This document shows, piece by piece, positions 1,831 through 56,819 of a DNA stretch of 64,000 nucleotides. This stretch comes from an uncultured virus (IMG/VR IMGVR_UViG_3300045391_004154). Lineage: Duplodnaviria; Heunggongvirae; Uroviricota; Caudoviricetes. The stretch lies in IMG/VR virus record IMGVR_UViG_3300045391_004154; one strand, given 5' to 3'. Position 1 is the stretch's first letter. Every line of letters begins with the position of its first letter. The notes under the pieces are model-generated. The model had not been told where the DNA came from. It saw only the letters and a program-made list of their open reading frames with translations, and did not search any database. Made by a program: the position numbers and the translations under genes.

Positions 1831-1839
1831 GAGAACGTC

Positions 1840-3088: not shown

Positions 3089-3166
3089 GCATGCGTTCAT
3101 TCTTTGCCGCGTTGGTCACGATTGCATTGGTTTTATCCTTTCCCGATATGACGTAGGAGCCTTCAA

Positions 3167-37237: not shown

Positions 37238-37434
37238 TTTTTCAACTCCACCTCAATCAGGTTGATGGGAATGCCGCTCAGGCTCGAGGCGGTACGCAGG
37301 CGATCCTGGGGCGCGCCGTCGCGACCGTCGCGCACGTAGGTCACGGCCGCGGCCAGCAGCCGCTCGCGCTGGCGCTTGAGGCCCTCCTGCATGTCGCCGT
37401 CGGGAAATTGATAGATGGCCTGCTCACCGCTCAT
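37234..37434 (-). CDS. Small hypothetical protein
   Basis: AAGGAG RBS, ATG at 37434. Confidence 0.45.
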   Translation of the reverse strand: MSGEQAIYQFPDGDMQEGLKRQRERLLAAAVTYVRDGRDGAPQDRLRTASSLSGIPINLIEVELKK

Positions 37435-38425
37435 TTTGATACTCCTTCGGTAATGGGGCGCAGTTCTCGCCGGGCAGCATCTTGCGATATTGGCGCCAGC
37501 CGTCGAAGTTGCCGTGCTGCCTGCGGTTGGCCCAGGCGGAGGATATGATTCCACTGGGATCAATCATGTAGTCGGGACGCGCCTGGTGCTCGGCCGGCGA
37601 CGCGTGGATGGGCTCCTCGGGATCGTAGAAGTCGGTGCCGGGAATGTTGAGCCGGGCATAGGTGCGCAGGTCCTCGCCCCAGGTGCTGCGCTTGCCGGTC
37701 TCAAAGCTGGTGGTGCTCACGCGGGCGCAGCGCGCCACCGAGGTCTTGATGATCCGTTCGCGCAGGGCCTCGAAGTTATAGGTGCCCTCCTCCAGCATCT
37801 CCACCTGCAACTTGGTCCAGTCCATTGGTCCGATATAGGGCAGGTGCCACTCCTCGTCGCTCAGGTGCTCCGGCTCGCTGTTCTTGATCGCCGGCCAGAT
37901 GGCATCGGCCAGCGCCTTGAACTCCGGCTGCGCCGCCCGATGCAGCCGCAGGCCAAAGAAGTTGTCCCAGTCCGTGGCGGTGATGATGCCGTGCACCCAT
38001 AGATACGGCTCCAGCACCCGGTTGGCAATCTGCTTGTGCAGGCCCAGCTTGGCCAGGCTCTCGGCCTGGATGGCGGCAAAACCGGCGGCGGCGCGCCACT
38101 GGCGCTTGGCCATCTCGCGATCCGTCACGGTAAAATATTGTCCGTCCGTATCCATCACCGTGTGCTTGCGCGCGGTATCATCCAGCTCCTCGGCCGCCTG
38201 CATGCCGGCCTGGTTCTTGCCCCAGAAGACTGGCATGGCCGGGTTGGTACGAACCTCCTCCAGCATCTTGGCGACGGGCACGGCGCGGCTGCTGCGATAG
38301 TTGCGGCTCAGCGCGCGATGCGTGTTGATCTCCGCCAGGATGAAGCGGTGCGCGGTGACCTCTACCGAGGTAATCCGCTTGCCAGCCGGTGAGATGCTGT
38401 CGCAGACGACGTCGGCGCGAATCAT
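37424..38425 (-). CDS. thyX: Flavin-dependent thymidylate synthase
   Basis: RFILAE..THR..SRN..SSRAVP, HKQIANR.LEP, FF.LR.H..AQPE, SVARCARVS, HASP.EH. Confidence 0.85.
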   Translation of the reverse strand: MIRADVVCDSISPAGKRITSVEVTAHRFILAEINTHRALSRNYRSSRAVPVAKMLEEVRTNPAMPVFWGKNQAGMQAAEELDDTARKHTVMDTDGQYFTVTDREMAKRQWRAAAGFAAIQAESLAKLGLHKQIANRVLEPYLWVHGIITATDWDNFFGLRLHRAAQPEFKALADAIWPAIKNSEPEHLSDEEWHLPYIGPMDWTKLQVEMLEEGTYNFEALRERIIKTSVARCARVSTTSFETGKRSTWGEDLRTYARLNIPGTDFYDPEEPIHASPAEHQARPDYMIDPSGIISSAWANRRQHGNFDGWRQYRKMLPGENCAPLPKEYQNER

Positions 38426-38913
38426 GATTTTTTCTCCGTCGGACCAGCATGCACGGACAGGCTGGCGTTTGCATCGAGTTCCGTAAAACCCTCGCGCATC
38501 TTTCCGGCCAAAATATGAGCCAATGCGGCGCGCACCTGCGGCGTAACATTCTCGGCCATATTGAAGGCCTTCACCAGGGCCAGACGCTTCTGCAGGGCAC
38601 CCTCTTCACCATTGCGCTTGCGCTCCTCCTCTACGATATTCTCGCCCACGGCCATAGCTCCCGCTAGCATCGCGGCGACGAACACCAAATCACCGCAAGG
38701 AAACTTGGATTCATGGGTATGAGCCATCTCCTGGAGATGATCACGCACCTTGGGAGTATACATGACAAATTCCAAGGCGGCAGTACCCACGGCGGTCTTG
38801 AGCGGATCAATCGGCCCGTGCTTGGCGGTGTCGTCGTGCAGCGCGTCCTTGAAGGCCGCGGCGCGCACCTCGGGTGAAACATTCTCCATCAGCTTTTTCA
38901 GTAAATCACTCAT
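38422..38913 (-). CDS. Hypothetical protein
   Basis: AAGGAG RBS; coupled to thyX. Confidence 0.6.
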   Translation of the reverse strand: MSDLLKKLMENVSPEVRAAAFKDALHDDTAKHGPIDPLKTAVGTAALEFVMYTPKVRDHLQEMAHTHESKFPCGDLVFVAAMLAGAMAVGENIVEEERKRNGEEGALQKRLALVKAFNMAENVTPQVRAALAHILAGKMREGFTELDANASLSVHAGPTEKKS

Positions 38914-38928
38914 TGGTTCTCCTTGGCT

Positions 38929-39471
38929 CTATAGTCGGCTCTTGATGAATATATTACCGCCAAACTTCGCTTGGGCTCGGCGCATGCGGGCAGCGTCTTC
39001 TGGGTGCAAACCCAACAGCAAACTTGGAAACCATTTTTGCTCAAATGGCTTGCCGCTTGGTTTGTAGAAGGTAAGCCGGTGATCTGGAAACCAGATGGCA
39101 GCGCTCTTTTCCATGATGAGCTGCGTGGCCGCGGTCTCGGTGGCGCGGCCGTTGAGCAGTGCAATTCCACTATTCTGCTCCACGAACTTCCTGGCCCACT
39201 GCAGCACGCCGCGATAGGGCGGGTTCATGAATACCCGATCGCGCGGACGCCACGGATAGTCCAGCCCATTTAGCACTGCCGGATAATAAAAGCCCTTCGC
39301 CGTCTTTCGCACGCTACCATCGGTCAGCATCAACCGGGCCGTGCGCCACGGCATCTTCGGCGGGCAGCACGGGTCAAGATCAAACGGGCCCAGCAGCTTC
39401 ACCAGCGCTGGGTCGGTGAGGTAGGTATTGGACCAGTTCTTTTGATCGGAATAGGGCGTGGCATCAGCCAT
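38929..39471 (-). CDS. Phage DNA N6-adenine methyltransferase-like protein
   Basis: LGPFDLDPC, NGL...W, VFMNPPY, GIALL..R..ET, RLTFY; ATG at 39471. Confidence 0.75.
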   Translation of the reverse strand: MADATPYSDQKNWSNTYLTDPALVKLLGPFDLDPCCPPKMPWRTARLMLTDGSVRKTAKGFYYPAVLNGLDYPWRPRDRVFMNPPYRGVLQWARKFVEQNSGIALLNGRATETAATQLIMEKSAAIWFPDHRLTFYKPSGKPFEQKWFPSLLLGLHPEDAARMRRAQAKFGGNIFIKSRL

Positions 39472-39928
39472 TTGTAATGTGCTCCCAGGTCCGGCGCGTC
39501 GGGAGAATGTCACCGTGCCGCGGCTTAAGCCACCGCCCCCTGCTCTCGGCATCGTGCGCGTAGGGCTCCGAAAATACGATCCGCAGGCAGCCGGTGTTTA
39601 GGAGCGCCTTGACGCAATCGAGGCAGGGGGAGTGCGTGACATAGCAGGTGTGGATCAACCGCACGTCGGGGCAGCGGAGCAGCGCGTTGATCTCGGCGTG
39701 AATGGCCTCGCAGGCTTGCAGGTTCTTTCCACTCGGGGCGTTGCGGCCGGCGCATGGAAAGATATCACAATGGGCCTGGCCACTCGCCGGCCCGTTGTAG
39801 CCGGAGGAGATGGGATAGCCGTCCGCGTCCATCAGCAGGCAGCCGACCTGGCGCCGGCCGCAGGTGCCGCGGCGCGCCCAGGCCGCGGCGATCGCCAGGC
39901 CCGTTTCGTCTAGGGTTGCGCGGCTCAT
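39464..39928 (-). CDS. dCMP deaminase
   Basis: TC.RRQVG, GYNG, IHAEINAL, THSPCLDC. Confidence 0.88.
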   Translation of the reverse strand: MSRATLDETGLAIAAAWARRGTCGRRQVGCLLMDADGYPISSGYNGPASGQAHCDIFPCAGRNAPSGKNLQACEAIHAEINALLRCPDVRLIHTCYVTHSPCLDCVKALLNTGCLRIVFSEPYAHDAESRGRWLKPRHGDILPTRRTWEHITNG

Positions 39929-40803
39929 CCGAACAACTCCCCGAGGAAGTGCGCCGACTGCAGCGACCATTGGCCGCGGGCGCAGGCCCAGAGGTGCGCG
40001 ATGAGGTCATCGCTGGTCTGGAACTCGGCGAGGTTGAGCGAGCGCATGACCTTTTCACTCGCCTCGTTTAAACACGCTTGTGCGCCGTCGCTGTCCACCT
40101 GATAGAGGTGCTGCGAGCCGGCGGTGAGGGTGAGGTAGCCGAGCTCCAGCTCGCGCAGCGCCGCGAGAGTGGTCTTCTGCTCGCCCAGCAATAGCTCAGC
40201 ATTTTGGGAGCTCAGGATTTTGCTGGCCTGGCCGCGCAGCTCCAGCGCCACGACGGCCGCCGCCATGGAGAAGTTGAAGATGTCGTAGACCCAGCCGGTC
40301 CAGATGTCGGAGCTGCGCATGGTGGCAACGCAGTGCAGCTTGCCGCCCCGGATGAGGAACTGCCAGGAGAGCGTGCAGGGCGTGTCCTTGCTCGGCCGCG
40401 GCTGCTCGCGCCAGATGTTCACGACGGCCTGACGAGAGGCGGGATCGCGCACGAGGGTATCCACCACGAAGGAGAGCTGGTCCACGAACTTGGGCCCGTA
40501 GGCCCCGAAGTAGCGCCGGCCGTCATCGCTCAAATCCTTGATGGCCTTGGCGTAGGGCGCGATGGTTGAGACGCGGTTGTCGCCGGACAAAATCCAGGCG
40601 GCCTCGGCGCACATGAACTTGTAGCCGAGCTTTCGGCCCGGAGAGAGTACCACAGGGTTGCTCATGTCGATTGTGGTCTGATAGGCGACCAGCTCCCGGT
40701 TCGCCCGGCCGCGCCAGGTGGCGCCAGCGGACATGGGAGAAACACTCACGCCACTGTGGAGCAAATCCATGAGGGCGCGTTTCCAAACCAGGGTGGTGCT
40801 CAT
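39925..40803 (-). CDS. Thymidylate synthase-fold enzyme, probably dCMP-specific (methyl- or hydroxymethyltransferase)
   Basis: GAYG, SRQAV, KDTPCT, QF.IR, MRSSD.W.G..YD.F, GSQHLY; ATG at 40803. Confidence 0.8.
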   Translation of the reverse strand: MSTTLVWKRALMDLLHSGVSVSPMSAGATWRGRANRELVAYQTTIDMSNPVVLSPGRKLGYKFMCAEAAWILSGDNRVSTIAPYAKAIKDLSDDGRRYFGAYGPKFVDQLSFVVDTLVRDPASRQAVVNIWREQPRPSKDTPCTLSWQFLIRGGKLHCVATMRSSDIWTGWVYDIFNFSMAAAVVALELRGQASKILSSQNAELLLGEQKTTLAALRELELGYLTLTAGSQHLYQVDSDGAQACLNEASEKVMRSLNLAEFQTSDDLIAHLWACARGQWSLQSAHFLGELFG

Positions 40804-41810
40804 ATTTTCAATGCCTCTTGCAGTAGGGTTCGATATTTTTCGGGATGCTGGGCCTGGAAGCGGCGGGCCCATTGGGGATGCGGAATGCTTGCCGCGTTGG
40901 GAAAGCTCAGCTCCTCCACCCGCCGCGCCGCGATCCCGCCCAGCGCGATCACGCGCGTGGTGGCGGAGAGGTGATCGCGCAGAAAGCGCAGCCAGTCGTG
41001 GCCGATGGCGTTGGTCCACAGTGCCTGGTCCTCGCGGAATTTGAGCTTATGCAATTGCTTGTTGAAATAGGTCGCCGAGCTCATCTCGTCGTTCCACAGG
41101 AACGGCGCGGCCCGGTTGCAGGCCCGTGGGCTCAGCTGCTCGCCCACGAACAGGTAGCGGGGATCGCGCGGGTTGCCGGTGAGGTTGGGCAGGTCGGTGG
41201 CGAAGGTTTCGCCGGCGTGGCGGCGCAGGGCGTAGACCCGGCCCACGATGGTATCCATGGCGATGTCCAGGAGCTTGGCCGATATGCCGGCAATCTCGAA
41301 GTCGTACACCAGCACGTCATCGCGCAGCGGATAGTCCTGAAACTGGGTAAGCTGGTTGTAATACCACTTGCCGTCGGCCGCCAGGTTGCCGCTGGCCAGA
41401 TCGAGATAGCGTTGCGCCACCATCTCCATGCGAGCAAACTTCTCCACCCGGGTGCGCTTCAGCTCCTCGAAGTGCTTCATGTGACCGGCAAAGTCGCGCC
41501 GGACGCACAGCACCGTCACGGCGCCGTAGCGCAGCAGGGCGCGATCCAGGCACCTGGCGCCCAGATCGTAGGCTGGCCCGTCGCGGAAGGTGTCGCCGTA
41601 TATCTGCTCGGAGAGCCAGAGCCGGTCAATGATGACCAGCTGCTTCTGACTGCGCTTGATTGCCAGATCAACCGTCGCCAAATGCCGCTTCCAGATATCC
41701 GGCCACAGGCCATTGTGAATGTAAAAGGCGTCATAGCGCTTCACGAGCGCGCGGGCCAGCGTAGTCTTGCCCGTGCCGTCGGCGCCCTCCAGGATAATAA
41801 TGCCCTTCAA
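40800..41810 (-). CDS. dNMP kinase fused to a uracil-DNA glycosylase-like domain
   Basis: LEGADGTGKTT, IDR..LSE.IYG; then LFVGE, WTNA, VIALG..A, HP. Confidence 0.75.
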   Translation of the reverse strand: MKGIIILEGADGTGKTTLARALVKRYDAFYIHNGLWPDIWKRHLATVDLAIKRSQKQLVIIDRLWLSEQIYGDTFRDGPAYDLGARCLDRALLRYGAVTVLCVRRDFAGHMKHFEELKRTRVEKFARMEMVAQRYLDLASGNLAADGKWYYNQLTQFQDYPLRDDVLVYDFEIAGISAKLLDIAMDTIVGRVYALRRHAGETFATDLPNLTGNPRDPRYLFVGEQLSPRACNRAAPFLWNDEMSSATYFNKQLHKLKFREDQALWTNAIGHDWLRFLRDHLSATTRVIALGGIAARRVEELSFPNAASIPHPQWARRFQAQHPEKYRTLLQEALKI

Positions 41811-41811
41811 T

Positions 41812-41967
41812 TCAATCTCCCTGCGATAGCTTGCGTTTAAACAGCATCGCCTTGCCGCTCGGGTAGAGCGCGCAAAACTCCCAGGTGGGGTCGAGGTGCT
41901 TCCAGAACACGTCGTCGGGCCCGGGAATAACCACGAACTCCGCCACCAGATATTCCCAGCGGTCCAT
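41812..41967 (-). CDS. Small protein (DUF4177-like)
   Basis: 52 codons: MDRWEY...WEF...LFKR; below the ORF-track cutoff. Confidence 0.45.
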   Translation of the reverse strand: MDRWEYLVAEFVVIPGPDDVFWKHLDPTWEFCALYPSGKAMLFKRKLSQGD

Positions 41968-41972
41968 GATTG

Positions 41973-42161
41973 CTATTCCTTCGGCCCAATCAGGTTCAAG
42001 CTCAGCTTGACCCCCTCGGGCGCGCCGTCCACCTTGGCAAAGCCGCTGGTGCTGGCGATCATCCGCGACTTACCGGTGCCGCTCAGCGGCGCGGCCTTCA
42101 CCTGCTCGGCGGTGCACGGAATGCGCACCACCACTTCACCGTTTTCATACGAGATTTTCAT
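41973..42161 (-). CDS. Small hypothetical protein
   Basis: S.TGKS..IAST.G motif; GGAG RBS. Confidence 0.6.
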   Translation of the reverse strand: MKISYENGEVVVRIPCTAEQVKAAPLSGTGKSRMIASTSGFAKVDGAPEGVKLSLNLIGPKE

Positions 42162-42185
42162 TTGGTTCTCCCAGCTCTGTTTCGA

Positions 42186-42230
42186 AACTAAACCCTAGTC
42201 TCTCGGGTAAACAAAAGTAAACACTGTTTA
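42186..42230 (-). promoter_or_regulatory. Leftward promoter-like element
   Basis: Minus strand GTTTACTTTTGTTTA (shared with the 29.9 kb element), 18-nt spacer, TAGGGT. Confidence 0.5.
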
Positions 42231-42713
42231 TTCGCCGATCCGGAAGCGCTTGGCGTGCTGCTCCAGGATGGGCGCGTGGTTCGGCGGCACGAAGTCCTTT
42301 GGTTTCACCACGTCCAGGCTATGCCCGCGAGTCGATCGCGGATCACCCGCGGACACAGCCCGCTCCTTGCTCATGTTGGCGCGCTGCACCTCGGCGAAGA
42401 CCTCGTTGAGTGGAATACCCAGCATGTGCGCGGTGCCATCAGTGACATACTTCAAGTCGGCCAATGCGTCAGCGGCCTTCTCCAGGTCCTTGCCGTCATC
42501 GGGATATTCGTTGAGGTAATCCTGAGCCCGACTGATGGCATCGGCCGCGTTGCTGTAGCCACAGGCAAGCACCAGCTCCGAGAGCTCCTCCATCAGGAAT
42601 TTTATTCTAAAGCAGATGGTGCTCTCGTCGGGAAACCCGGGTGGCGTGCTCTCGGCCACGGGCAGGTCAAACTTGCGGTGGAACTCGCCCACCAGGTTGA
42701 AGGTATCGGTCAT
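42228..42713 (-). CDS. MazG/PRA-PH-like NTP pyrophosphohydrolase
   Basis: V.EFH.KF, R...L.EEL.EL, ADALADL.YV..G, F.EV.RANMSK, KP..F..P. Confidence 0.82.
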   Translation of the reverse strand: MTDTFNLVGEFHRKFDLPVAESTPPGFPDESTICFRIKFLMEELSELVLACGYSNAADAISRAQDYLNEYPDDGKDLEKAADALADLKYVTDGTAHMLGIPLNEVFAEVQRANMSKERAVSAGDPRSTRGHSLDVVKPKDFVPPNHAPILEQHAKRFRIGE

Positions 42714-42716
42714 GCT

Positions 42717-43244
42717 CTATCTCCGTCTAATTATGTTGATAATTTCCGCCTCACTGATGGGGCGATAGTCGGCGTAGTCGCAGTCCACTCCGACGTCCAG
42801 GAAGGTGCAGAGCTCCTGGCGCGGCGGCTTGCCCTTGCCGCCGTGATGATGGCCGTGCAGCACCAGGCCATTAGCCATCGGGTCGTGCAGGTGGAGTCGG
42901 CGCGGGTCGTGGATCAGGTTGACCTTCCAGCCATTTGAGAAGCAAATGACGGAGTAATCCTCCACGCTGGCCCAGCCCCTGGCCTTGTAGGTATCGCGAT
43001 GATCGTGGTTGCCCTTGCGCAGATGCTTGGTGCCATGCAGCTCCACCAGGATGCACTCGAGCTCGGGCCGGCGAAAGTATAGCGCCACGTCTCCCAGCAC
43101 GAACACCTCGTCCTCCGGCCGCACGGTGTCGTTCCAGCGGCAAATCAGCTGCTCGTGCATGTGGGCCAGGTCGCGAAACGGCCGCTCGCAATAGTCAATG
43201 ATCTTGTCGTGGCCGAAGTGGAGATCGGAGGTGAAGTATCTCAT
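42717..43244 (-). CDS. Calcineurin-like metallophosphoesterase
   Basis: TSDLHFGH, LGD, GNHD, LHGHHH, DVGVD. Confidence 0.85.
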   Translation of the reverse strand: MRYFTSDLHFGHDKIIDYCERPFRDLAHMHEQLICRWNDTVRPEDEVFVLGDVALYFRRPELECILVELHGTKHLRKGNHDHRDTYKARGWASVEDYSVICFSNGWKVNLIHDPRRLHLHDPMANGLVLHGHHHGGKGKPPRQELCTFLDVGVDCDYADYRPISEAEIINIIRRR

Positions 43245-43582
43245 TTCTCACCGTGCGTCACGTTCCGCGGGATATCCTCCAGAAGGTATTCACCCTCCAG
43301 CGCCGCCAGATCGCCGACGGCGTAGAAGGCCGCGCCGAGCTCGCGATAGCCCTCCACCGAATAACCAATCAGCATGTAGAACTGGTTCAGCTCGGCCTCG
43401 GTAAACTCGCCTTCGTGATAGCGCTTGACGATCTCGTTGAGGTCCAGCCTCTTGGGGCCGGTGCCTCTAAGGTCCAGCAGCGCGGTGACAATCCGGTTTT
43501 CCTGAAACCGCGGCTTGTTATCCGGGCCCAGGATAACGGGCTGCATCGGCAGCCCATTCATCGGTTCAAGCAGTCTCTTCAT
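43241..43582 (-). CDS. Hypothetical protein
   Basis: PMQP, RFQEN.IV, QF..LIGYSV.GY.EL. Confidence 0.6.
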   Translation of the reverse strand: MKRLLEPMNGLPMQPVILGPDNKPRFQENRIVTALLDLRGTGPKRLDLNEIVKRYHEGEFTEAELNQFYMLIGYSVEGYRELGAAFYAVGDLAALEGEYLLEDIPRNVTHGEK

Positions 43583-45080
43583 CGGCTTCCTCCTCCATCT
43601 GCGCCTCAATGGACTTCGGCACGGCGAACGGCAGGAGCTCGGCCGGGAATTTCCGTATCTCCGGCACGGCATCCTTGCCGCGCAACAGCTTGAGGTTCTT
43701 GCGCTGCGTCGCCACATCGTTCTTGCTCACCAGGCTCTCCGGCCAGTGATGCTTGATGATAGCCACCAGCTGGTCGGCGGTGAAGCGGTCCAGGGATATC
43801 AGCTCCTGGAGGTAGCGCATGCGGCCCTGCTTGCGATCGGGCTCGGGTATCGGCGCGCCCACGAGCAGGTTCGCCACGGGCACCTCCACCCGCCGCTTGC
43901 CACCCACCCCCTGACTCTTGGCCCGCGGCGCGCCCTCAAAGCGGGCGGCCGGAATGTGCTGGACGAGCTCGCGAGCAGGGGGGAGCTCGTGAACGTAGGA
44001 ATGACCCTCCGCGGGAGGCTCGCGCAATTCCACGTGGAAGACGCCAGGCCGCTCGGGCTTGGTCCCGGTGCGAATGGCGTTGGCCACCACGCCGCCCAGC
44101 CAGGAGCCACACGGCGGGCAGACGCCGCGCGCGATGAGAGAGAAGGCCGCGTTGGGAGTGGTGGCGGCGAACTCGTAGTCCGGCGGAAAGCCGCAGAGGG
44201 CTGCGCCCTCATTGACGGTAACAAAGCGCTTTTCCGTCGGATGAATGAGGGCGTAGCCCACGAAGGCATCGGCCGGTCGGTCAACCGGCAGGCGGCGATG
44301 GCCGAAGCTGGGCCGGCCGATAATCTGGCCCTGCTCGCCGCGCTTCCACTGGTCCTGCGGCACGAAGCGCTCCCAATAGTCGCGCACCTTCTCGCCCGGC
44401 TCCATTTCGAAATAGGTATTCTGCAGCCACTTGGCAACGAGCGGTTCGATCTTCACCGTCCAGTCCAGCCTGGTGGGCGTAACCTCCTGGAGGCATTCCA
44501 GCGCGGTCTTGGGTGGCGCCCAGTTGGGCAGCGGCCAGCCGATGTTGACCTTGGAGCAAACCATGAAGAAGCGCTTGCGGCTCTGTGGCACACCGTGCCA
44601 CTTGGTGTCATGGAGCACGTAATAGACGTTGTACCCGAGCTCCAGGGCCTTCTTCTCGAGCTCGCGCAGCACCTCCTGGCCCTTGCCATAGGCCTGCGTC
44701 ACGCTTTCGGTGGCCCAGACGGTCGGGCGCAGCTTCTCCAGCAGGCCGAAGTGCCGCACGGTACACTGCACGCGCGGATCGGTCCGCCACTTGTCGGCGC
44801 CGCGCGTCTTGGTGTAGCCGGCCACCGACCAGGCGGCGCAGGGTGGATTGCCGTAGATGAAATCGAGTTCTTGGAACTCGGGTTCATCTACGGGCCACTC
44901 TGAATTCGGATAATGAATGGGCAGGTCCGGGTAGTTCTTCTGCACGGTTGCCACCCCGTAGTCACTCTCCTCGAAATGGGCGATGACGTCGAAGTGGTCG
45001 CGCACCCCGATGGAGAAGCCACCGGCGAAGACGTTGGCGGCGAGGGCGCGGAGCTTGGGCTGAGTTTTCTTTTTGGTCAC
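43566..45080 (-). CDS. C5-cytosine DNA methyltransferase-fold enzyme with divergent motifs I, VI and X and an extra C-terminal domain
   Basis: FAGGFSIG, GNPPC, ESV, GVPQSRKR, RF.TV.E.A.L.GFP, IARGVCPP. Confidence 0.85.
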   Translation of the reverse strand: MTKKKTQPKLRALAANVFAGGFSIGVRDHFDVIAHFEESDYGVATVQKNYPDLPIHYPNSEWPVDEPEFQELDFIYGNPPCAAWSVAGYTKTRGADKWRTDPRVQCTVRHFGLLEKLRPTVWATESVTQAYGKGQEVLRELEKKALELGYNVYYVLHDTKWHGVPQSRKRFFMVCSKVNIGWPLPNWAPPKTALECLQEVTPTRLDWTVKIEPLVAKWLQNTYFEMEPGEKVRDYWERFVPQDQWKRGEQGQIIGRPSFGHRRLPVDRPADAFVGYALIHPTEKRFVTVNEGAALCGFPPDYEFAATTPNAAFSLIARGVCPPCGSWLGGVVANAIRTGTKPERPGVFHVELREPPAEGHSYVHELPPARELVQHIPAARFEGAPRAKSQGVGGKRRVEVPVANLLVGAPIPEPDRKQGRMRYLQELISLDRFTADQLVAIIKHHWPESLVSKNDVATQRKNLKLLRGKDAVPEIRKFPAELLPFAVPKSIEAQMEEEADEETA

Positions 45081-45104
45081 GGGTATTCCTTGGCTGGTTG
45101 AGAG

Positions 45105-45476
45105 TTAGCGACGACGATAGAGGCCCTTGGCCGGTGAGACAATGAGCTTATAGATATTGTTCATGAGGGACATCTGCGGGCTGCAGTTGCTTTCCTTGAA
45201 GTTGTTCTCCTTCAAGAAGGTCTTGACCTGCTTGAGGTTGAATTCGGTACCGCTGGGCATCTGCTGCACCCAGGCTCGGACGGCCTCGGTGATGGGAGAG
45301 CCCTTTGACTGGGTAATTACCCGCTTCTTGGGCGGCATAACGGCGGTCGTGATGGGACCATTACCGACGGTAGTTACCTGCAGGTTGCTGACCTCCTTGG
45401 TCAGCACCTCCAGGACGGTGGTAAGCCGGTTCTGCGGAATGTCGAATGAGACGTGGAACATGCTTTGAACTTTCAT
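45105..45476 (-). CDS. Hypothetical protein, possible winged helix
   Basis: AAGGAG RBS; C-terminal ...SPAKGLYR. Confidence 0.55.
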   Translation of the reverse strand: MKVQSMFHVSFDIPQNRLTTVLEVLTKEVSNLQVTTVGNGPITTAVMPPKKRVITQSKGSPITEAVRAWVQQMPSGTEFNLKQVKTFLKENNFKESNCSPQMSLMNNIYKLIVSPAKGLYRRR

Positions 45477-45501
45477 GACGGTTCTCCTTTGGCTCTGTTA
45501 A

Positions 45502-45723
45502 TTATCTTTTGGCGCGGCACTTCGGAACTGGGCCATACCAGACAAACATGTTGAGGTCGTTCCAGCTATCATCAGAGCCGAACTCGTAGATTTTATCGCG
45601 GCTCTTATCACCGTTGGTGTAGACCAGGAGCGGGACAATATCCGGGCTATGCGTTTGACGGCCGTAATAAACGCCATCTTCGGTCGGTGCCGGATTGATT
45701 TTGCGTCGCAGGACTCGGCTCAT
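45502..45723 (-). CDS. Small hypothetical protein
   Basis: PTEDG.YY...WYGP.P motif. Confidence 0.5.
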   Translation of the reverse strand: MSRVLRRKINPAPTEDGVYYGRQTHSPDIVPLLVYTNGDKSRDKIYEFGSDDSWNDLNMFVWYGPVPKCRAKR

Positions 45724-46421
45724 TTCTTCTTGCCCTTCTTCTTGGGCTTTTCAGCCGGCGCTGGCTCCGCCTTCACTACGGGCTTGGCGTCCTTCTCGGG
45801 CCAGGGCGGCACGTCGCCGCGGCCGAAGCGCGCCTGGCGGTCCTCCACGCTCATCTCCATGAGGATATTGTAGTTGTACTTGACGTCGGACTTCTTGGTG
45901 GTGCGGCCGGGCCAATTGCTCAGCACGATCTCCACCAGGCGCTCGGGCGTGTAGCTGCCCGTCATCCAGAGGCGCTGCATAAGCTTGCCGGAGCCCTCGT
46001 TCTGACCGGGCTTCTCGCCCTCGCCGGGAACGTAGACCTTCTCCACCTTGGCCGCGTTTAAACGCTCTGCGGCCGCGGCGCGCTGGGCCTTCTGCTCGGG
46101 GCTCAGCTCGGGCTCGGGCACGGGAAAGCCGAGCAGCTTCATGGCGAGCCGGTAGGTCGCCGAGTTGCGATCGTACTCCTCCGCCGTTCGCGCCAGCCGC
46201 ACCGCCACCTCCTGGTAGTTCCAGGCCGGCAGCAGGAGCTCCACGGGCTTGAGCCGATCCCAGATGGCGATGGGGCTCTTATCATAGGAGCAGTCGGCCG
46301 GTGACAAGAGCGTCACCCACTTTTGGCCGCGCTCCACCACGAGCAGCCGGCGCTTGCCGGCGCCGAAGGTTGGGATTTCATCCTCCAGGTGGACTTCCCA
46401 ATAGGTGATGTCGTCGCTCAT
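45720..46421 (-). CDS. Early protein carrying the shared ~50-aa domain
   Basis: GGAGG RBS; ...YTPERLVEIVLSNWPGRTTKKSDV...; basic tail. Confidence 0.65.
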   Translation of the reverse strand: MSDDITYWEVHLEDEIPTFGAGKRRLLVVERGQKWVTLLSPADCSYDKSPIAIWDRLKPVELLLPAWNYQEVAVRLARTAEEYDRNSATYRLAMKLLGFPVPEPELSPEQKAQRAAAAERLNAAKVEKVYVPGEGEKPGQNEGSGKLMQRLWMTGSYTPERLVEIVLSNWPGRTTKKSDVKYNYNILMEMSVEDRQARFGRGDVPPWPEKDAKPVVKAEPAPAEKPKKKGKKK

Positions 46422-46739
46422 TTATCCCCTCCGCAGAAAGATGAAAATCACCGTGGGTATCAGGATGGCCGCGGCCACCAGGCTATAGATGGCCGTCCAG
46501 ACTTGCGCGTCAGTTGGCATGGCTCAGCTCCGCGAGTAGGCCACGCCATAGTAGCGCAGCTTGGCTTCGTAGGCGTTGGCCATTATGGAGGAGCGAAAGT
46601 GAAACTCTCGCCATTCCCCGCTGAACGGCAGCAGGACCTTAAATATGTGCAGCTTCATCGTCACCACTCCTTGGGCTCGGGTGTACTCACAGTCTCCCCT
46701 CCGGGTGACTGTGAGCACACGCCTAGCTCACCGTGGGGC

Positions 46740-47441
46740 TTATTCGGCGGCCGGCAGCTTCTTGCCGTCGTTGCGCAGCTTCTGGCGGTTCCAGCTGACG
46801 TCGCTGGCCTTGGCGGAGCTGTCGGGGTAGTGCTTCTTGACCAGATCAAGAATGGCGGCGGTCGTGGCATTCTTGCCGCCCTTCATGAGCAGCGAGCGAA
46901 TGTAGCAGCCGCAGGTCATGTTGGCCTTCGGCGCCGAGGTGCTCAGCTCCTCAAAGAGCGGGGCCGCGACGCGGGGCTTGCGCTCGCCGGCCTTCTTGGC
47001 CGACTTCTTGACTGCAGGCTTCTTGGACTTCTTGGACTTCGTGGCCATCTGGCCCTCCGTTGGTTGGTCCGTCCCCTCCGAGGGGCCGGCGTTGATGGCG
47101 GCCGGGTTGGTATCCTGCTGATCCGTGGCCGTCGGCTTCGGGTCAAAGGGTTCTTCGGGCTGCTGCCCGTACTTGGCATTCAGCGCGGCGAACACCCGGC
47201 GCTGACCGTCTTGCTTGGTGGCGAACTTTGAGACATGCTTTTTCTCATCATCCGTCAGGCGATTGAACAACACGGCGAGATTGGGTCCCGAATAGCTGTT
47301 CAAATCCTCCGCCTCAATTACCACGACCTGAGTGGGCTGACCAGTGCCTGCCAAATATTGGCGAGCGGCCTCCCCGTGCGGGTGCGTGGTGATCAAAAGG
47401 TCCCTGAACAGGACCCCATGTGCAAGGGCGTATATCGTCAT
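46740..47441 (-). CDS. Early protein carrying the shared ~50-aa domain
   Basis: GGAGGAG RBS, ATG at 47441; Lys-rich linker; ...TTAAILDLVKKHYPDSSAKASDVSW... Confidence 0.65.
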   Translation of the reverse strand: MTIYALAHGVLFRDLLITTHPHGEAARQYLAGTGQPTQVVVIEAEDLNSYSGPNLAVLFNRLTDDEKKHVSKFATKQDGQRRVFAALNAKYGQQPEEPFDPKPTATDQQDTNPAAINAGPSEGTDQPTEGQMATKSKKSKKPAVKKSAKKAGERKPRVAAPLFEELSTSAPKANMTCGCYIRSLLMKGGKNATTAAILDLVKKHYPDSSAKASDVSWNRQKLRNDGKKLPAAE

Positions 47442-47564: not shown

Positions 47565-47993
47565 CTACGTGGGCGCAGGAACCTTGTTCTTCAAATCCGT
47601 CGCCGCCTTGATCCGGTCCACGATGCTGGTGGTATAGACCATGGTCTTTCCGGTCACGACGTTCCGCATCTTGATCGGATATTTGGTCCGATTGAGCGCT
47701 AGGCCGGCCACTTCCCACACCTGGTGCTGCAGCGTGACCTGCGTCCCGAAGTCAATGCCGCGCAGCCCATACATGGAAGCGTAGACGCTGAACTCGCGCC
47801 GTGCCGCGCTCTCCATCACCGACTTGTCGGCGATCTTCATTTCCAGCTGGAACTTGGCGGTGGCCTCATCAAAGCGGCCGTTGCCGACGCGGAACTCAAT
47901 TCCGTATTTCTCGCCCAGCTCCTTCAGGGCATCCTCAAGTGGAGAGCGGAGGCCCTTCAGGGCATCCTTGGAAAACTTCATGATCTTGGCCAT
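47565..47993 (-). CDS. First early protein (hypothetical)
   Basis: GGAGGAG RBS, ATG at 47993; RTKYPI motif. Confidence 0.65.
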   Translation of the reverse strand: MAKIMKFSKDALKGLRSPLEDALKELGEKYGIEFRVGNGRFDEATAKFQLEMKIADKSVMESAARREFSVYASMYGLRGIDFGTQVTLQHQVWEVAGLALNRTKYPIKMRNVVTGKTMVYTTSIVDRIKAATDLKNKVPAPT

Positions 47994-48216
47994 TAAAGGC
48001 TCCTCCATTGGTTTCTGCGTTGATCCGGTGCGGGGTCCCATAAGCTTGAGCCTGCTGCATCGCCCGTCCGAAGACGTACTAAAGCCTGCTCGTTGATGGG
48101 ACCCCCACCTTCCGCGACCTCCACTCACCACTCCTGAACCCACCCGTCTGCGCGTGTCCGAGGACACTATGCTTGGGCCGGGGTTCGTTGTTGGTACTCG
48201 GCCGATCACTGAAGCT

Positions 48217-48289: not shown

Positions 48290-49753
48290 TTAAAGGGGAA
48301 ACCCGTAGGCGGTCTTCGGGGCGACCAGATATAAGGTCTCCGAGGCCCGGGTGAGCCCGACGTAGAACACCCGGTGCTCGCTGTCCGGGTCCAGCCGATA
48401 GCCCCGCTGGGTCCGATAGGTGAGGTCCGTGGAGAGCAGGACGTTCTCCGCCTCGGCACCCTTCGCCCCGTGAATGGTCTCGATCCTCACGCGCGGCTCG
48501 CCGTCCAGCTTCTCGCCGCGGCGCCGGCAGGCCAGGTAGTATTCCCGATCCTCGAGGGGCAGCCGAATGAGAGCGTCGTGCCAGATGGGCGTGCAGTCCA
48601 TCTTCAACTCCGCGGCCGTATAGGTGCTCGCCTCCTTCAGCTCGCGCGTCACGCCGCAGAAGCGCAGCACCTCGGATACGTCGCTCGCCTCCACGCGCTT
48701 GCCGGCGCGAAGCGCCTCATAGGATTTGATGGCGATGATGTGCGCCGGCTTGACGCTCGGCTCACCCTTGAGCCGATACACAACCCCCTGCTCGCGCGCC
48801 ATCTGCGCCAGCGGGTTGAGCTGGGCGCGCGTCCGGGCGAGCAGGAGCCACTTGCCAGTGCTCAGGTCCACCTCCTCCGGCCGGTTGATCCACTCCACCC
48901 GGCCGGCGCGATCCTGGCTCCGCCACTCCTTGGCGTAGCGACGCTCAACCCGCGAGGCCACCGATTCCGCTAAGTCAAAAATTGACTTAGGCAGTCGGTG
49001 GGACAGGGGGAGAATGCGGCGCTGGAATGGCAGATTGAGGAAATGCTCCTCGGCGGCGCCGGCCCAGCGGTGAATGGATTGCAGGTCGTCGCCGGCATAA
49101 TAGACGTCATCGGCATCGGCGAAGGCCTTGCGCGCCACGTCGTATTGCGCCAGGGTGAAGTCCTGGGCCTCATCGAGAATGGCGAGCTTGACCGGCGCCG
49201 GCGGGACGTGCGCGTGCGCATAGGCCGTGAGCATGTCGGTGAAGTCCATCAGGTTCCAGTCGCGCTTATACGATCGGTAGGTGTCGGAGAAGCGCTTGAG
49301 CCGGAACCAATCCACGTCGCCGCCATGATCCTGCCACGCGTTTTCCAGGCCGCGCTTGGTGGTGCGCGCCAGGTGATCGATTGTGAGGAGCTCGTCGGCG
49401 TTGCGACGCGTGGCCGGCGAGTCCAGCATCGGGTTGAGGTCGTTGATGAGCTCGCCGGTGGCCGCGGAGAGCTCACCGAGGTGCTCCTCGCTCAGCACGT
49501 CGCGCGAGGTTAGGCCCAGCTCGCGGAACGCCAGGCTGTGGAGCGTGCGGAAGTAGGGCAGGTCGCGCTCGCTGAGGTTGAAGCGCTTGGTGGCGCGGTC
49601 CTTGGCCTCCTGGACGGCCGCACGGGTGAAGGAGACAAACGCGATGGAGGACGGCTGCAGCCCTTCTTCCATGGCCTGCTCCATGATCCCGAGCAGCTCG
49701 GTCGTCTTGCCGGCGCCGGGTCCACCCAGGATGAGGGTCTGGTTCTGGGTCAT
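48290..49753 (-). CDS. UvrD-like SF1 helicase (replication module)
   Basis: GGPGAGKTT, SFTR.A, FRTLHS, DEAQD, AGDD.QSI..WAGA, TIHGAKGAE, YVGLTRA. Confidence 0.88.
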   Translation of the reverse strand: MTQNQTLILGGPGAGKTTELLGIMEQAMEEGLQPSSIAFVSFTRAAVQEAKDRATKRFNLSERDLPYFRTLHSLAFRELGLTSRDVLSEEHLGELSAATGELINDLNPMLDSPATRRNADELLTIDHLARTTKRGLENAWQDHGGDVDWFRLKRFSDTYRSYKRDWNLMDFTDMLTAYAHAHVPPAPVKLAILDEAQDFTLAQYDVARKAFADADDVYYAGDDLQSIHRWAGAAEEHFLNLPFQRRILPLSHRLPKSIFDLAESVASRVERRYAKEWRSQDRAGRVEWINRPEEVDLSTGKWLLLARTRAQLNPLAQMAREQGVVYRLKGEPSVKPAHIIAIKSYEALRAGKRVEASDVSEVLRFCGVTRELKEASTYTAAELKMDCTPIWHDALIRLPLEDREYYLACRRRGEKLDGEPRVRIETIHGAKGAEAENVLLSTDLTYRTQRGYRLDPDSEHRVFYVGLTRASETLYLVAPKTAYGFPL

Positions 49754-54241: not shown

Positions 54242-55189
54242 TTACATGGGAGGAGTATCGGAACCCTTGACCGCGATGTCGCCCGTGCCGGTCTGGTCGG
54301 TGCTGGTATCGGCCTTGGCCTTGCCCTCCTTGAGCATGACGTGGAAGGCCTTCGCCTCCTGGTACAGATTGTCACTCAGGGGCAGCAGGCTTTTCTGATA
54401 GGCGTCCTCGCTGCCGTCCTCGCGCTTGACGGCCAGCGTGAGGGTCAGGCCATAGAAGTCGCCCTGCTTGTTGCTCTCGAACACCGTCTTGAGGGTCCAG
54501 CGATGGGCCCACATCGGCGGCGTCACGTCCGGCAGCTTGTTGTTTTCCGTGGACCGGGGATTGGGATACTTGAAGCTGGTCACACGGCCCATGAAGCCCT
54601 GGTACTTCTTGATCTGCGTGGACTTGAAGCTCACCACGGCCCGGAACCACTGGCCGCTGCTCGGGTCCTTGAAGATACCGAACAGCGAGAAGACCTCGGT
54701 GATTTCCGTGCCGTCCAGCGCTTCGCCCTTGTCGTTGCGCTTCGTAACGCCGCGAGGCAGGCGACCGAACTTGCCGTGCTGCTGCTGGAGCTGGAGCACG
54801 ATGGGATCGGTGGGCTCGTAGACGGCAACCAGGCCGCCGCCGAGAGCGCGAGGAGTGAACTCCAGGAACTTGTGATCGCGATAGACCGGGATGAACTCCA
54901 TCGGGGCCTCATCGATCTTGTAGAGCTCACCAGTAGCACCATTGAGCAGCATGCCGGCAACGGCGCCGGGCATTCCACCATTGGCCACGGGCTTGACCTG
55001 CGGCGAGAGCGGCTGCAGCAGGTTCAGGAAGGGAATCTTGAGCTCGGCGCTGGAGACGTCCTCCAGGCCCGCGCCGGCGTCGTCGCCAAAGTCGTAGGTC
55101 TGGACGGCGGTGCCGGTGCCGGCCGCGGCCGGAAGGTTCTTGTCTTCGGTCTTGGGCTCTTCAACTTTGGATGCTTGTGCTTTCGACAT
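54242..55189 (-). CDS. Single-stranded DNA-binding / annealing protein (putative)
   Basis: GLED...LKIPFL.LLQ.LSPQV, KSTQIK; acidic tail; position in the replication module. Confidence 0.6.
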   Translation of the reverse strand: MSKAQASKVEEPKTEDKNLPAAAGTGTAVQTYDFGDDAGAGLEDVSSAELKIPFLNLLQPLSPQVKPVANGGMPGAVAGMLLNGATGELYKIDEAPMEFIPVYRDHKFLEFTPRALGGGLVAVYEPTDPIVLQLQQQHGKFGRLPRGVTKRNDKGEALDGTEITEVFSLFGIFKDPSSGQWFRAVVSFKSTQIKKYQGFMGRVTSFKYPNPRSTENNKLPDVTPPMWAHRWTLKTVFESNKQGDFYGLTLTLAVKREDGSEDAYQKSLLPLSDNLYQEAKAFHVMLKEGKAKADTSTDQTGTGDIAVKGSDTPPM

Positions 55190-55549
55190 GTCTAACTTAC
55201 CTCTTCAATATGCCCGAACTTTCTAGCGGCAACGGGCTAACCGCGGCTTCTGTTCGTACGCATCAATTAGATGTGTACGAACAAAATCAATTGGGTGGCG
55301 CGTGCTGGCTGGCGACGTAGAGCATATAACCCACGATCATGAGCACGGTAACGGTGACGCAGATAAAGTCAGTCTTTGTCACTGGCGTATCTCCAATGGG
55401 TTATGTCGTTGTCGGGGTCGCGGTGATCGTGGTACCAGGAGAGGCTGGCCGCGCGAATGCGCAGCCGCTCGCTTCCATCGCGATGCCGCACGGCCACGAA
55501 GGCCTGCGCGTTGCAGGGGCGCCCGTCTCCCTCGTGGGGCTTGTATCCA

Positions 55550-56440
55550 TTAGCCATCGAACGCCGCCACTCCCTTCTTGCGCTCCTTCTTGCTGAACAC
55601 GGCGAAGCGCAGCTTGAACTGGTCCACCTGCTTGGGCAGGGCCTCATCGGGGTTGCGGCCGGCCTTGATGAGCTTCTCGCGCTCCTCGCGGCAGTAGCTC
55701 TGCAGGGTCTGGTAGTGGATTTCCTCCTTTACCTCCGGCTCAAGATCAACCTTGCGCTTGGCCAGGTCGGCGAGGAATTTCTTGGCGGCCTTCACCTGGT
55801 CGCGGCCGAACTTGATCACGATGGTGCGCTTGACGATCGCGTCGTCCTTCTTCTTTTCCAGCCAGCCAATGAAGCCGGGAAGGTTTTCCTTCTTGACGGA
55901 GAACTTGACGTCCTCCACCAGGTCCGTTTCCCACTCGCCGTCGTTGCGATCCTTGTAGACCCAGCCGCTGACGCGCGCGTCGGTCATGACGTTGGGCAGC
56001 GTGATTTCCGTTAGCTCCTTCAGCTCCTTCTGGAGCTTGGCGAGCTCGGCCTCGGCCTCGGGAATGAGTATCTCCTGCAGCTTCAGCCCCCTGCTCACCA
56101 GCGCGGCGAGGTTCTTGACCTGCGCTTCACTCGGGCCGGTCTCCTCATCGGCCTCCACCTCGAGCGGCATCGGGTTCTTGAAGCTCGCCAGCACCTGGTC
56201 AGCGGTGATGATTTGCACCTCCTCACCCTGCTGGACGTATCGCGCGCCGCGGTTGCTGACGTTGTGATCGGCGCACAGCCCGCACATCGGCAGGCAAACC
56301 TTATCGGTGCCCATCACCACGAAGGTTGCGGGCTGCCGGCATGGCGTGTAGGTGGCTGCGCCCATGACGCACTCGGCGCAATCCACGCCGGGGCCGGGAT
56401 GCATGTGCTTGACGGATTTCTTTTCAGGCTTCTTGGGCAT
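55550..56440 (-). CDS. Conserved replication-module hypothetical protein
   Basis: AAGGAG RBS, ATG at 56440; LP..M, IHYQTL..Y.RE. Confidence 0.6.
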   Translation of the reverse strand: MPKKPEKKSVKHMHPGPGVDCAECVMGAATYTPCRQPATFVVMGTDKVCLPMCGLCADHNVSNRGARYVQQGEEVQIITADQVLASFKNPMPLEVEADEETGPSEAQVKNLAALVSRGLKLQEILIPEAEAELAKLQKELKELTEITLPNVMTDARVSGWVYKDRNDGEWETDLVEDVKFSVKKENLPGFIGWLEKKKDDAIVKRTIVIKFGRDQVKAAKKFLADLAKRKVDLEPEVKEEIHYQTLQSYCREEREKLIKAGRNPDEALPKQVDQFKLRFAVFSKKERKKGVAAFDG

Positions 56441-56819
56441 GGGATTCTCCTTGGGGCTCTGGGTTGGGAAGCAGGGGGATTTGGCAGGCGACGTAGCCGA
56501 GCTCGCGACCACGCCACACCAGGATATTGATGCAGTATTTTTGCGTGGTGCCGCAATAGGCGCCGATGATGGAAGCGGCCGCGGTGATGAGCGCGGGATG
56601 GCCGACGGGAAGCAGGAAGTCCTCGGCCGGATTGAAGTCCAGCAGCTTCTTGGCCATCTCCGGCCACCAGCCGAACGGGTCCAATGGCGGCTCGCCGGCG
56701 GGCGCGAGATAGACGAGCTCGCCGAACACCTCGGCCGGCCGCAGGTCAATGGCGCGACCATAGGCGCTCGAGCCGGGAATGCGCTTGAGAGGTTCGTTGA
56801 CGACAAAGACCTTGGGCAT
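56424..56819 (-). CDS. Hypothetical protein
   Basis: VFVVNEP, A..FGEL..L, DFLL.VG.P, W. Confidence 0.6.
   Translation of the reverse strand: MPKVFVVNEPLKRIPGSSAYGRAIDLRPAEVFGELVYLAPAGEPPLDPFGWWPEMAKKLLDFNPAEDFLLPVGHPALITAAASIIGAYCGTTQKYCINILVWRGRELGYVACQIPLLPNPEPQGESHAQEA

Follow-up and report, generated by a model that had tools for sequence, protein, structure and literature searches.

Small DNA-binding domains that are attached to, or encoded beside, DNA methyltransferases and base-modifying enzymes are represented by HARE-HTH (PF05066), a modification-linked winged helix, and by ParB-N/ParBc (PF02195). Phage DNA hypermodification pathways are being solved one enzyme at a time, and little is known of what directs these enzymes to viral DNA. 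CmoX (PDB 8YF3), a phage DNA cytosine C5-carboxymethyltransferase, has the fold of C5 methyltransferases (MTases) and an Arg in motif X; this residue (R350) binds the carboxymethyl group of Cx-SAM, CmoX candidates are defined by an SPPC motif together with an R350-equivalent Arg, and ParBc proteins of 'precise function unknown' adjoin phage C5-carboxymethyltransferases (PMC12783734). Other known systems that the module described here may come close to are small tri-helical HTH DNA-binding domains, namely homeodomain-like or transposase-type HTH, TrpR and the N-terminal domain of the small terminase.

The window analysed here, a 64,000-nucleotide stretch of an uncultured caudoviricete (IMG/VR record IMGVR_UViG_3300045391_004154), encodes a C5-MTase-like protein in a block that also holds ThyA-like, dCMP deaminase, MazG and kinase-like genes (Table 1). 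The first-pass annotation had proposed, from quoted protein segments, that a repeat of ~50 residues occurs in three neighbouring proteins, one copy being fused to the C5 transferase. All three segments were found, on the minus strand, and they belong to one homologous module of ~55 residues. Megablast with the region matched no INPHARED phage. A syntenic 74.5-kb IMG/VR contig keeps all three copies and encodes an MTase that is 88% identical. The p123 gene is kept in contig L002 and gave no module match in HMM searches, with Pfam returning DUF3349 at a sub-threshold level only. A UvrD-type helicase gene lies immediately upstream of the p255-like gene in contigs L088 and L090, and one extra small gene separates the two in the window and in L002.

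Table 1 Coordinates of the module copies, their carrier genes and neighbouring features in the window.
Feature	Position	Strand	Remarks
C5 cytosine DNA-methyltransferase-like gene	43566..45080	−	504 aa; PF00145, PHROG 116
Module copy 1, MTase residues 413-470	43671..43844	−	divergent 'GRM...DVATQR' subtype
p123, small conserved gene between MTase gene and p233	45105..45476	−	module-free; context
p233 gene	45720..46421	−	carries module copy 2
Module copy 2, p233 residues 137-195	45837..46013	−	'GSGKLMQRLWMTG...NWPGRTTKKSDVKYNYN' subtype
p255-family gene	46740..47441	−	233 aa from ATG at 47441; longest ORF to 47507
Module copy 3, residues 190-255 of 255-aa ORF (168-233 from ATG)	46743..46940	−	'CGCYIRSLLM...HYPDSSAKASDVSWNR' subtype
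Internal in-frame ATG (47048-47046) behind GGAGGG (47058-47053)	47046..47058	−	in p255 gene
UvrD-type helicase gene	48290..49753	−	upstream of block; PF00580 at E 1.4e-24

Pairwise BLASTP between the copies is weak, with E-values of 4e-5, 0.003 and 0.13, the last for p233 against p255. HMMs built from two copies and searched against the 1209 six-frame segments of the window recovered the third copy as the best non-training match each time (E 4.8e-5, 5.9e-6 and 2.1e-4), the next matches following only at E ≥ 0.4. Comparison of independent family alignments by hhalign gave probabilities of 94.4% (E 9e-8), 92.8% (E 4e-7) and 96.7% (E 3e-10), and in every pair the aligned region was the module alone. 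With a family HMM of 173 sequences, the window shows three copies and no more (E 1.6e-26, 2e-25 and 3.8e-17), the next match lying at E 0.49. The profile alignment, on whose significance the first-pass annotation had staked its claim, is thus significant by both leave-one-out HMMs and hhalign and, judged by sequence comparison, the repeat represents a genuine protein domain ~55 residues long.

The module belongs to a phage domain family that is widespread, lacks an earlier description and corresponds to no Pfam model. A profile search of 1.84e9 proteins returned, as cluster representatives, at least 191 sequences at E ≤ 1e-3, of which 29 reach E ≤ 1e-10, and the family consensus reads P-x2-G-E-G-S-G-x-Y-I-R-R-L-L-M-x-G-x2-T-x-E-x-I-L-x2-V-x3-F-P-x-S-K-A-x2-S-D-V-S-W-N-R-x-K-L-K-x2-G, to which copy 3 is the nearest of the three window copies. 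Searches of Pfam and NCBIfam found no family for it, searches of the literature on the motif and on C-terminal DNA-binding domains of phage C5-MTases yielded nothing on it, and it goes unmentioned in the hypermodification papers searched for relevant terms. The family is almost absent from the cellular genomes scanned: genome contigs yielded no confirmed locus with the p255 family and, with the MTase subfamily, two MAG loci only, both of them module-free. Its definition would provide an annotation for the at least 191 representatives, mostly without a functional name, and a handle for finding modification gene sets.

With regard to known families, a Pfam search with the module copies of the window gave no match to HARE-HTH at E ≤ 10, and this family is missing from the 25 Pfam families listed for 41 module members, and DUF3489 (PF11994) gave no Pfam match to the module. 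Leads from the ESM Atlas to HARE-HTH clusters (0.76) and DUF3489 clusters (0.75-0.78) lie under the trust level of the tool. Unlike HARE-HTH and ParBc, to which no HMM match exists, the module is shorter and mostly wingless. Residues 207-254 of p255 match PHROG 17205 at E 4e-5, and the MTase and p233 copies have no PHROG match over the module. DUF6465 (PF20069) scores 19.8 bits on p255, below its gathering cut-off of 26, and produces sub-threshold matches to 9 of the 41 members at E ≤ 10 (best E 2.5e-4), which span the Lys-rich stretch and part of the module only and never attain the gathering score. DUF6465 and PHROG 17205, 38698 and 34102 are all families of unknown function.

The three-helix architecture proposed at first pass is predicted with high confidence for two of the copies. 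The AlphaFold model of the MTase copy (pLDDT 91.7) places helices at residues 8-17, 23-33 and 41-56, and the module blocks of the p233 model (pLDDT ~92) contain helices at 144-153, 159-169 and 177-189; the helix layout is identical and the top neighbours are the same, so the two predicted folds agree. According to these models, the module would form a compact, positively charged three-helix HTH-like bundle, in which helix 1 is capped by a loop rich in Gly, and the residues D-V-S-W-N-R form a conserved polar face on helix 3. Helices 2 and 3 are separated by a loop of 7 residues (34-40 in the MTase copy, 170-176 in p233), which is longer than the tight turn of ~3-4 residues in a classical HTH. 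The mean net charge is +4, with positive values for 94% of the 173 instances, and helix 3 is nearly invariant among phages of different hosts. In six short members (P0079, P0095, P0098, P0106, P0114 and P0137) helix 3 is followed by a conserved 'V-R-x-D-K-D-G-x-R-Y' stretch, possibly a wing. Foldseek returned nothing at E ≤ 1e-3 from PDB or BFVD, and a sequence-profile search of the PDB found no family for the module, Lys-rich histone tails being the only matches. The linkers, described as flexible in the first-pass annotation, do look so: those of the MTase family vary and are rich in Pro, that of p255 is rich in Lys, and in p233 the pLDDT of the linkers is low.

Among the 62 module matches of at least 300 aa, PF00145 is present in 46, often followed by a further enzyme domain, and the other domains include PF13489 class-I MTase (13), HMUDK_hel, the helical domain of 5-hmdU DNA kinase (2), UDG (1) and MazG (1). 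In 11 of the 46 matches with an MTase, a PF13489 domain follows the module; it resembles UbiG and CmoB only weakly. For the domains behind the module in fusion MTases of ~900 aa, Pfam remained silent even at E 0.01, and comparison with the other window proteins produced MazG (P0082) as the sole match. Short family members consist of a Lys-rich tail and the module, and PaMx74 gp56 and Mallos gp64 combine it with a long K/A/E-rich tail; such Lys-rich module proteins are abundant and belong to Pamexvirus- and Bradleyvirinae-type phages. The Lys-rich tails are compositional evidence only. When 43 MTase-linked modules outside the training sets were assigned to subtypes, 19 were of p233 type, 16 of p255 type and 2 of window-MTase type, with 6 ambiguous; elsewhere, p233- and p255-type modules thus ride on a methyltransferase, often between the MTase and a second DNA-modification domain, and the domain has evidently moved between carriers. 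On a FastTree phylogeny of the 173 modules, the MTase/non-MTase label changes 24 times compared with ~40 in shuffles (a value from five of 200), changes that are not countable as transfers because the module alignment is too short.

The carrier enzyme of the window consists of a catalytic domain (residues 19-324), a variable linker, the module and an acidic tail, and it matches PF00145 with 84.7 bits (cut-off 22) and PHROG 116 at E 4e-35. C81 (the motif IV Cys), E125 (motif VI) and R168 and R170 (the R-x-R of motif VIII) do not vary across 20 family members. The sequence of motif IV is NPPCAAWS and that of motif X is IARGVCPP; the motif IV Gln (PCQ) and the motif X Asn (N304 of M.HhaI) are absent, and the alignment places the motif X Arg opposite the Asn in the GNAVPP of DNMT1. 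This pattern of NPPCA and Arg in motif X is common to most module-bearing relatives, and the subfamily with the signature NPPCA / A-R-x-V-x-P-P is nearly absent from cellular genomes. A tblastn search with the window MTase returned only distant matches to the catalytic domain, never covering the module. The enzyme has the fold of CmoX and an R350-equivalent Arg, but its motif IV is NPPC instead of SPPC. The MTase family profile matches 8YF3 at E 7.7e-23, no better than HaeIII or DNMT1, and 8YF3 does not match the module profile. A scan of 40 window ORFs, all outside the structural-gene half, revealed neither a CmoA-like gene for Cx-SAM synthase nor a class-I MTase. In the module copy of this enzyme, the most conserved residues of the family are replaced (G9 by M, W46 by T and N47 by Q), so the ligand need not be the same for all three copies.

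The second carrier, p233, is composed of an N-terminal beta-rich domain (1-96), which weakly resembles Tudor/PWWP/SH3 barrels, a helix (108-125), the module, an ordered 'VPxWP' extension and a Lys-rich tail. In p255, an N-domain and a Lys-rich linker precede the C-terminal module, which is the best-conserved part among nine relatives (50-78% identity) that start at the equivalent Met.

In eight phage contigs or more, L088, L090 and L091 among them, a module-bearing MTase was found beside module proteins encoded separately. At 80 IMG/VR loci with the MTase subfamily, the module is on the MTase in 12; another module ORF lies within 10 kb in 6 of these 12, compared with 1 of the 68 loci whose MTase lacks the module, some of which are cut by contig ends (Fisher p 2e-5, loci counted without correction for relatedness). 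This co-occurrence supports a functional link between the enzyme and the module proteins; the first-pass annotation had gone further and suggested a DNA- or partner-targeting module that would join the three proteins in one system and position the transferase.

On balance, we think that the module is probably, if far from certainly, a new HTH-like DNA-tethering domain; that it binds DNA and that it serves as a tether are both inferences, and for DNA binding the net charge, the Lys-rich flanks and the fusions to DNA enzymes are indirect evidence. Tethering would be non-specific or weakly specific for sequence, and the near-invariance of helix 3 across hosts argues against sequence-specific reading of DNA. 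On an MTase-like enzyme, the module would follow the catalytic domain on a flexible linker and hold the enzyme on (phage) DNA, which would raise its local concentration or processivity, while on p255-like and p233-like proteins it may act together with the histone-H1-like Lys/Ala/Pro-rich stretches. The enzyme does not need the module, since 68 of the 80 loci lack it on the MTase, and the window MTase copy may bind something else in view of its replaced G9, W46 and N47. Defining the module would also offer a testable candidate for how modification enzymes stay on phage DNA.

A near-invariant helix 3 suits a conserved protein partner equally well, and the module could instead be a protein-protein docking device that brings the MTase, p233 and p255 to one partner, for instance a replisome component like the neighbouring helicase, or a host factor. 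We regard this as rather unlikely: the module is basic and Lys-rich stretches regularly adjoin it, matches to PqqD stayed under any threshold, and the helicase beside PaMx74 gp56 is not homologous to the UvrD-type helicase of the window, which leaves no single conserved neighbour to propose as the partner.

It appears more doubtful that the module reads the phage's own modified DNA and guides an MTase-like writer and accessory proteins to modified or hemimodified sites. Its ties to DNA-modification enzymes (the 46 of 62 long matches and the HMUDK, UDG, class-I MTase and MazG fusions), the presence of ThyA-like, dCMP deaminase, MazG and kinase-like genes in its block, a conserved aromatic residue and Asn-Arg on helix 3 that could touch a modified base, the weakly Tudor/PWWP/SH3-like N-domain of p233 and the sub-trust ESM Atlas leads to HARE-HTH/DUF3489 clusters (0.76-0.78) are consistent with such a reader. 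However, PaMx74 carries three module proteins and Mallos two with no such MTase nearby, Pfam reveals no similarity to HARE-HTH and every structural match is weak. A similarly long shot is that the module serves as an 'address tag' of a phage epigenetic reader-writer set, which would recognise the phage's own modified or replicating DNA and recruit the C5-pyrimidine-modifying enzyme with its CmoX-like Arg, p233 with its Tudor/SH3-like barrel and the histone-H1-like p255, possibly also as a short isoform from an internal start; if so, modification would spread along viral DNA and stay confined there.

Binding of the modules to each other, as homo- or hetero-oligomers joining the MTase, p233 and p255 in one complex, would fit the one or two module proteins that accompany a module-bearing MTase in at least eight contigs and the several paralogues in PaMx74 and Mallos, but is very improbable given that the large fusion MTases of L008, L012, L029, L081 and L082 carry a single module with no second module ORF within 10 kb and that the models suggest no dimer interface. 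Chance or compositional likeness of unrelated C-terminal tails, to which the BLASTP value of only 0.13 between p233 and p255 might point, is practically negligible and was refuted by three kinds of profile comparison (leave-one-out HMMs, hhalign and the search of the whole database), each of which reached significance within the module alone, and two independent models show the same fold.

The internal ATG of the p255 gene may serve as the start for a 102-aa product comprising the Lys-rich stretch and the module. A Shine-Dalgarno-like purine run lies 5-9 nt before the conserved 'MA(T/A)KKK' in all five p255-like genes examined (5/5), compared with 24 of the 236 in-frame ATGs that lie inside 43 ORFs of the window.

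The repeated domain that the first-pass annotation had proposed for three neighbouring proteins was confirmed as a module at residues 413-470 of the C5 cytosine DNA-methyltransferase-like protein (MTase, 504 aa), residues 137-195 of p233 and the C-terminal 66 residues of p255, whose longest ORF encodes 255 aa. Pairwise BLASTP among the copies was marginal (E 4e-5, 0.003 and 0.13). HMMs built from two copies and run on the 1209 six-frame segments of the window ranked the third copy as the top non-training match in each leave-one-out run (E 4.8e-5, 5.9e-6 and 2.1e-4), with chance matches appearing from E 0.4. Comparison by hhalign of independent family alignments, comprising six MTases that carry the window-type module, 19 relatives of p233 and nine of p255, gave probabilities of 94.4%, 92.8% and 96.7% (E 9e-8, 4e-7 and 3e-10), and every comparison aligned the module alone and no other region. 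As the leave-one-out HMMs and hhalign both yield a significant profile alignment, the objection foreseen with the original proposal, an alignment lacking significance, does not apply. An HMM of the 173-sequence family detected exactly three copies in the window.

The predicted structures are consistent with the three-helix layout suggested earlier. An AlphaFold2 model of the MTase copy (41-sequence alignment, mean pLDDT 91.7) places helices at positions 8-17, 23-33 and 41-56, and a separate model of full-length p233 (mean pLDDT 83.5) shows the same spacing (helices 144-153, 159-169 and 177-189), with an additional short helix and an ordered 'VPxWP' extension. The nearest solved structures common to both models in VIA-align were the helix-turn-helix (HTH) domains of SETMAR, Mos1, Tc3, ISCth4 and TnsB. 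Neighbours of the MTase copy also included homeodomains and Myb-like domains, and those of the p233 copy DnaA domain IV. The best structural neighbour of the module in BFVD was a region of the 1192-aa ADP-ribosyltransferase A0A7G9UT14 of Xanthomonas phage Xp12 (E 0.16, prob 0.97), with Xoo-sp2 proteins, one of them annotated 'TolA', as further neighbours. Contig L088 likewise encodes a protein of 883 aa (1576-4227, minus strand) that includes an ADP-ribosyltransferase domain, two genes downstream of its module-bearing MTase.

Judged by its profiles, the module forms a genuine family for which Pfam has no matching model, and searches of NCBIfam and PDB sequences likewise returned no match. A six-sequence profile retrieved 191 cluster representatives at E<=1e-3 and 29 at E<=1e-10 from 1.84 billion proteins, and a word-indexed search returned 38 longer proteins. 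DUF6465 recurred below threshold, in nine of the 41 members (E 2.5e-4 at best), and PqqD gave a few weaker hits; p255 matches PHROG 17205, a family without assigned function. The consensus of 173 instances reads P-x2-GEGSG-x-YIRRLLM-x-G-x2-T-x-E-x-IL-x2-V-x3-FP-x-SKA-x2-SDVSWNR-x-KLK-x2-G, with G9, D43, V44, N47 and L51 kept in 86-98% and a mean net charge of +4 (positive in 94%). Cellular genomes almost entirely lack the family: in a scan of 185,579 species, each represented by one genome, no confirmed locus was found for the p255 family and only two MAG loci for the MTase subfamily.

We favour, by a modest measure, the reading of the module as a putative DNA-tethering domain, since it is basic, has an HTH-like predicted fold, is flanked by histone-H1-like stretches and is joined through variable, apparently flexible linkers to the DNA-modifying catalytic domains that it follows or separates. 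Plausible backbone contacts would be the Gly-rich cap where helix 1 begins and, on helix 3, the Asn and Arg. Helix 3 is near-invariant across phages of different hosts, which counts against sequence-specific recognition and agrees equally well with non-specific DNA binding and with docking onto a conserved protein partner; the latter explanation is judged unlikely overall. Reading of modified DNA by the module appears less probable still, and binding of the modules to one another is highly improbable. The tethering reading would conform to an arrangement of known kind, in which a DNA-modification enzyme carries a small attached DNA-binding domain such as HARE-HTH. ParB-N/ParBc with methyltransferases is a published example (PMC12783734). 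The module showed no sequence match to ParB-N/ParBc or HARE-HTH, and no description of it was found in literature searches or in hypermodification papers screened for relevant terms.

Domain architectures were counted in the 62 matches of at least 300 aa among the best 150. A C5 DNA-methylase domain was present in 46, nearly always N-terminal to the module, and a class-I methyltransferase domain (PF13489) in 13, in 11 of these behind MTase and module; a 5-hmdU DNA kinase helical domain occurred in two, UDG and MazG in one each, and LAGLIDADG inteins interrupt three MTases. Four of the 62 are spurious repeat proteins. In about eleven fusions of 820-1120 aa, a large domain without Pfam recognition follows the module. 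In P0044, P0067 and P0071, the module-bearing MTases of other phages that are split by inteins with LAGLIDADG homing endonuclease domains, the insertion lies in the catalytic domain. The remaining matches are mostly short. In one group the module comes after a Lys/Ala/Pro-rich stretch, in some cases together with a second Lys-rich tail; in another, a Lys-rich linker connects it to an unrelated N-domain. Six short members have a module that continues into a conserved 'VRxDKDGxRY' segment, a possible wing. Module proteins of named phages are annotated 'hypothetical'. PaMx74 gp56 and Xanthomonas phage Mallos gp64 consist of the module and a long K/A/E-rich tail, and Variovorax and Janthinobacterium phages carry the module too. 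The PaMx74 region has three ORFs in which the family HMM recognises the module, and Mallos has two, both regions being without a C5-MTase.

The window contains three module subtypes. Subtype HMMs assigned 43 MTase-linked modules of other phages to the p233 type (19), the p255 type (16) and the window-MTase type (2), with six ambiguous, and the p233 and p255 kinds therefore occupy the enzyme itself elsewhere. The MTase copy in the window, in which G9, W46 and N47 have been lost, is a derived variant kept within its own small clade. Of 124 IMG/VR loci encoding MTases from this subfamily, the best 80 were retained. Among these, 12 carry the module on the MTase, and six of these 12 have one or two extra module ORFs within 10 kb, as against one of 68 loci with a module-free MTase (Fisher p 2e-5, for loci that are related to each other and in some cases cut by contig ends). 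A p255-type DNA pattern identified five loci, two of them new contigs and a third (L090) identical to locus L011 of the 80; in all five, a module-bearing MTase lies 0.1-1 kb downstream of a p255-like gene. This neighbourhood pairing thus supports a link among the three gene products beyond shared domain ancestry.

Module-bearing genes and their surroundings in the window, in transcription order
Feature	Coordinates	Strand	Remarks
UvrD-type helicase gene	48290-49753	-	first of the genes listed
Small gene	47565-48209	-	between UvrD-type helicase and p255-family gene
p255-family gene	46740-47441 (longest ORF to 47507)	-	followed by a 64-aa ORF
p233	45720-46421	-	after the 64-aa ORF; followed by a 73-aa ORF
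p123	45105-45476	-	between the 73-aa ORF and the MTase gene
C5-methyltransferase-like gene	43566-45080	-	last of module-bearing genes
Pyrimidine block	37424-43244	-	dense, directly downstream of MTase; ThyX-like, Dam-like (weak), dCMP deaminase, ThyA-like, P-loop kinase-like (336 aa), MazG, phosphoesterase

The three genes belong to a block on the minus strand that encodes replication and nucleotide-metabolism functions, and all are kept in an identical IMG/VR contig and in the syntenic contig L002 (MTase 88% identical). Past the MTase, phosphoesterase, MazG, P-loop kinase-like, ThyA-like and dCMP deaminase genes follow in this order; such pyrimidine metabolism is compatible with a modified pyrimidine in virion DNA. 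The longest ORF at 43241-43717 (minus strand) runs 152 nt into its upstream neighbour, and those at 39925-41019 and 40800-41810 (minus strand) overlap by 220 nt; these starts are probably annotated too early, as L002 has a different, 70-aa ORF after the MTase. The window looks like part of a ~74-kb uncultured siphophage-like genome with 61% G+C. Two proteins encoded in 54242-56806 (minus strand) match Pfam families named for Pseudomonas phage Pam3 (gp34-like, E 3e-46; gp33-like, DUF7307), and the DNA polymerase shares only 38% identity with those of the nearest named phages (Dinoroseobacter R5C and Pseudanabaena Pan1), so that the lineage is without a close cultured relative.

Twenty members of the MTase family show no variation at the catalytic Cys, motif VI Glu or motif VIII R-x-R. 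Motif IV (residues 78-85 in the window enzyme) is NPPCA, replacing PCQ, and motif X (residues 316-323) is (L/I)-A-R-(G/A)-V-x-P-P, its Arg taking the place of the Asn found in DNMT1 and M.HhaI. R350, which occupies this Asn position in CmoX, a phage carboxymethyltransferase, is described as binding the carboxymethyl group of carboxy-SAM (PMC12783734). The window enzyme shares the Arg, but was not assigned as CmoX because motif IV of the latter is SPPC, HaeIII and DNMT1 scored at least as well against the family profile as the CmoX structure 8YF3, a scan of 40 window ORFs detected no CmoA-like gene, and the class-I MTase domains present as fusions in relatives have only a weak resemblance to UbiG and CmoB. 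The motif X Arg suggests that the co-substrate may be other than plain SAM, and the group transferred by this subfamily may be other than methyl.

Within the p255-family gene, an in-frame internal ATG (starting at 47048; 47046-47058 with its SD-like run, minus strand) opens the Lys-rich stretch 'MA(T/A)KKK'. In all five p255-like genes compared (window, L002, L088, L090 and L091), an SD-like run (GGAGG, GAGGAG, GAGG or AGGAGG) lies 5-9 nt upstream of this ATG, against a background of 24 of 236 internal ATGs, and is kept although the residues encoded there differ; the relative P0009 has Val instead of the internal Met. This pattern suggests either a nested ~100-aa isoform, in which the Lys-rich tail is joined to the module, or a scar left by gene fusion.
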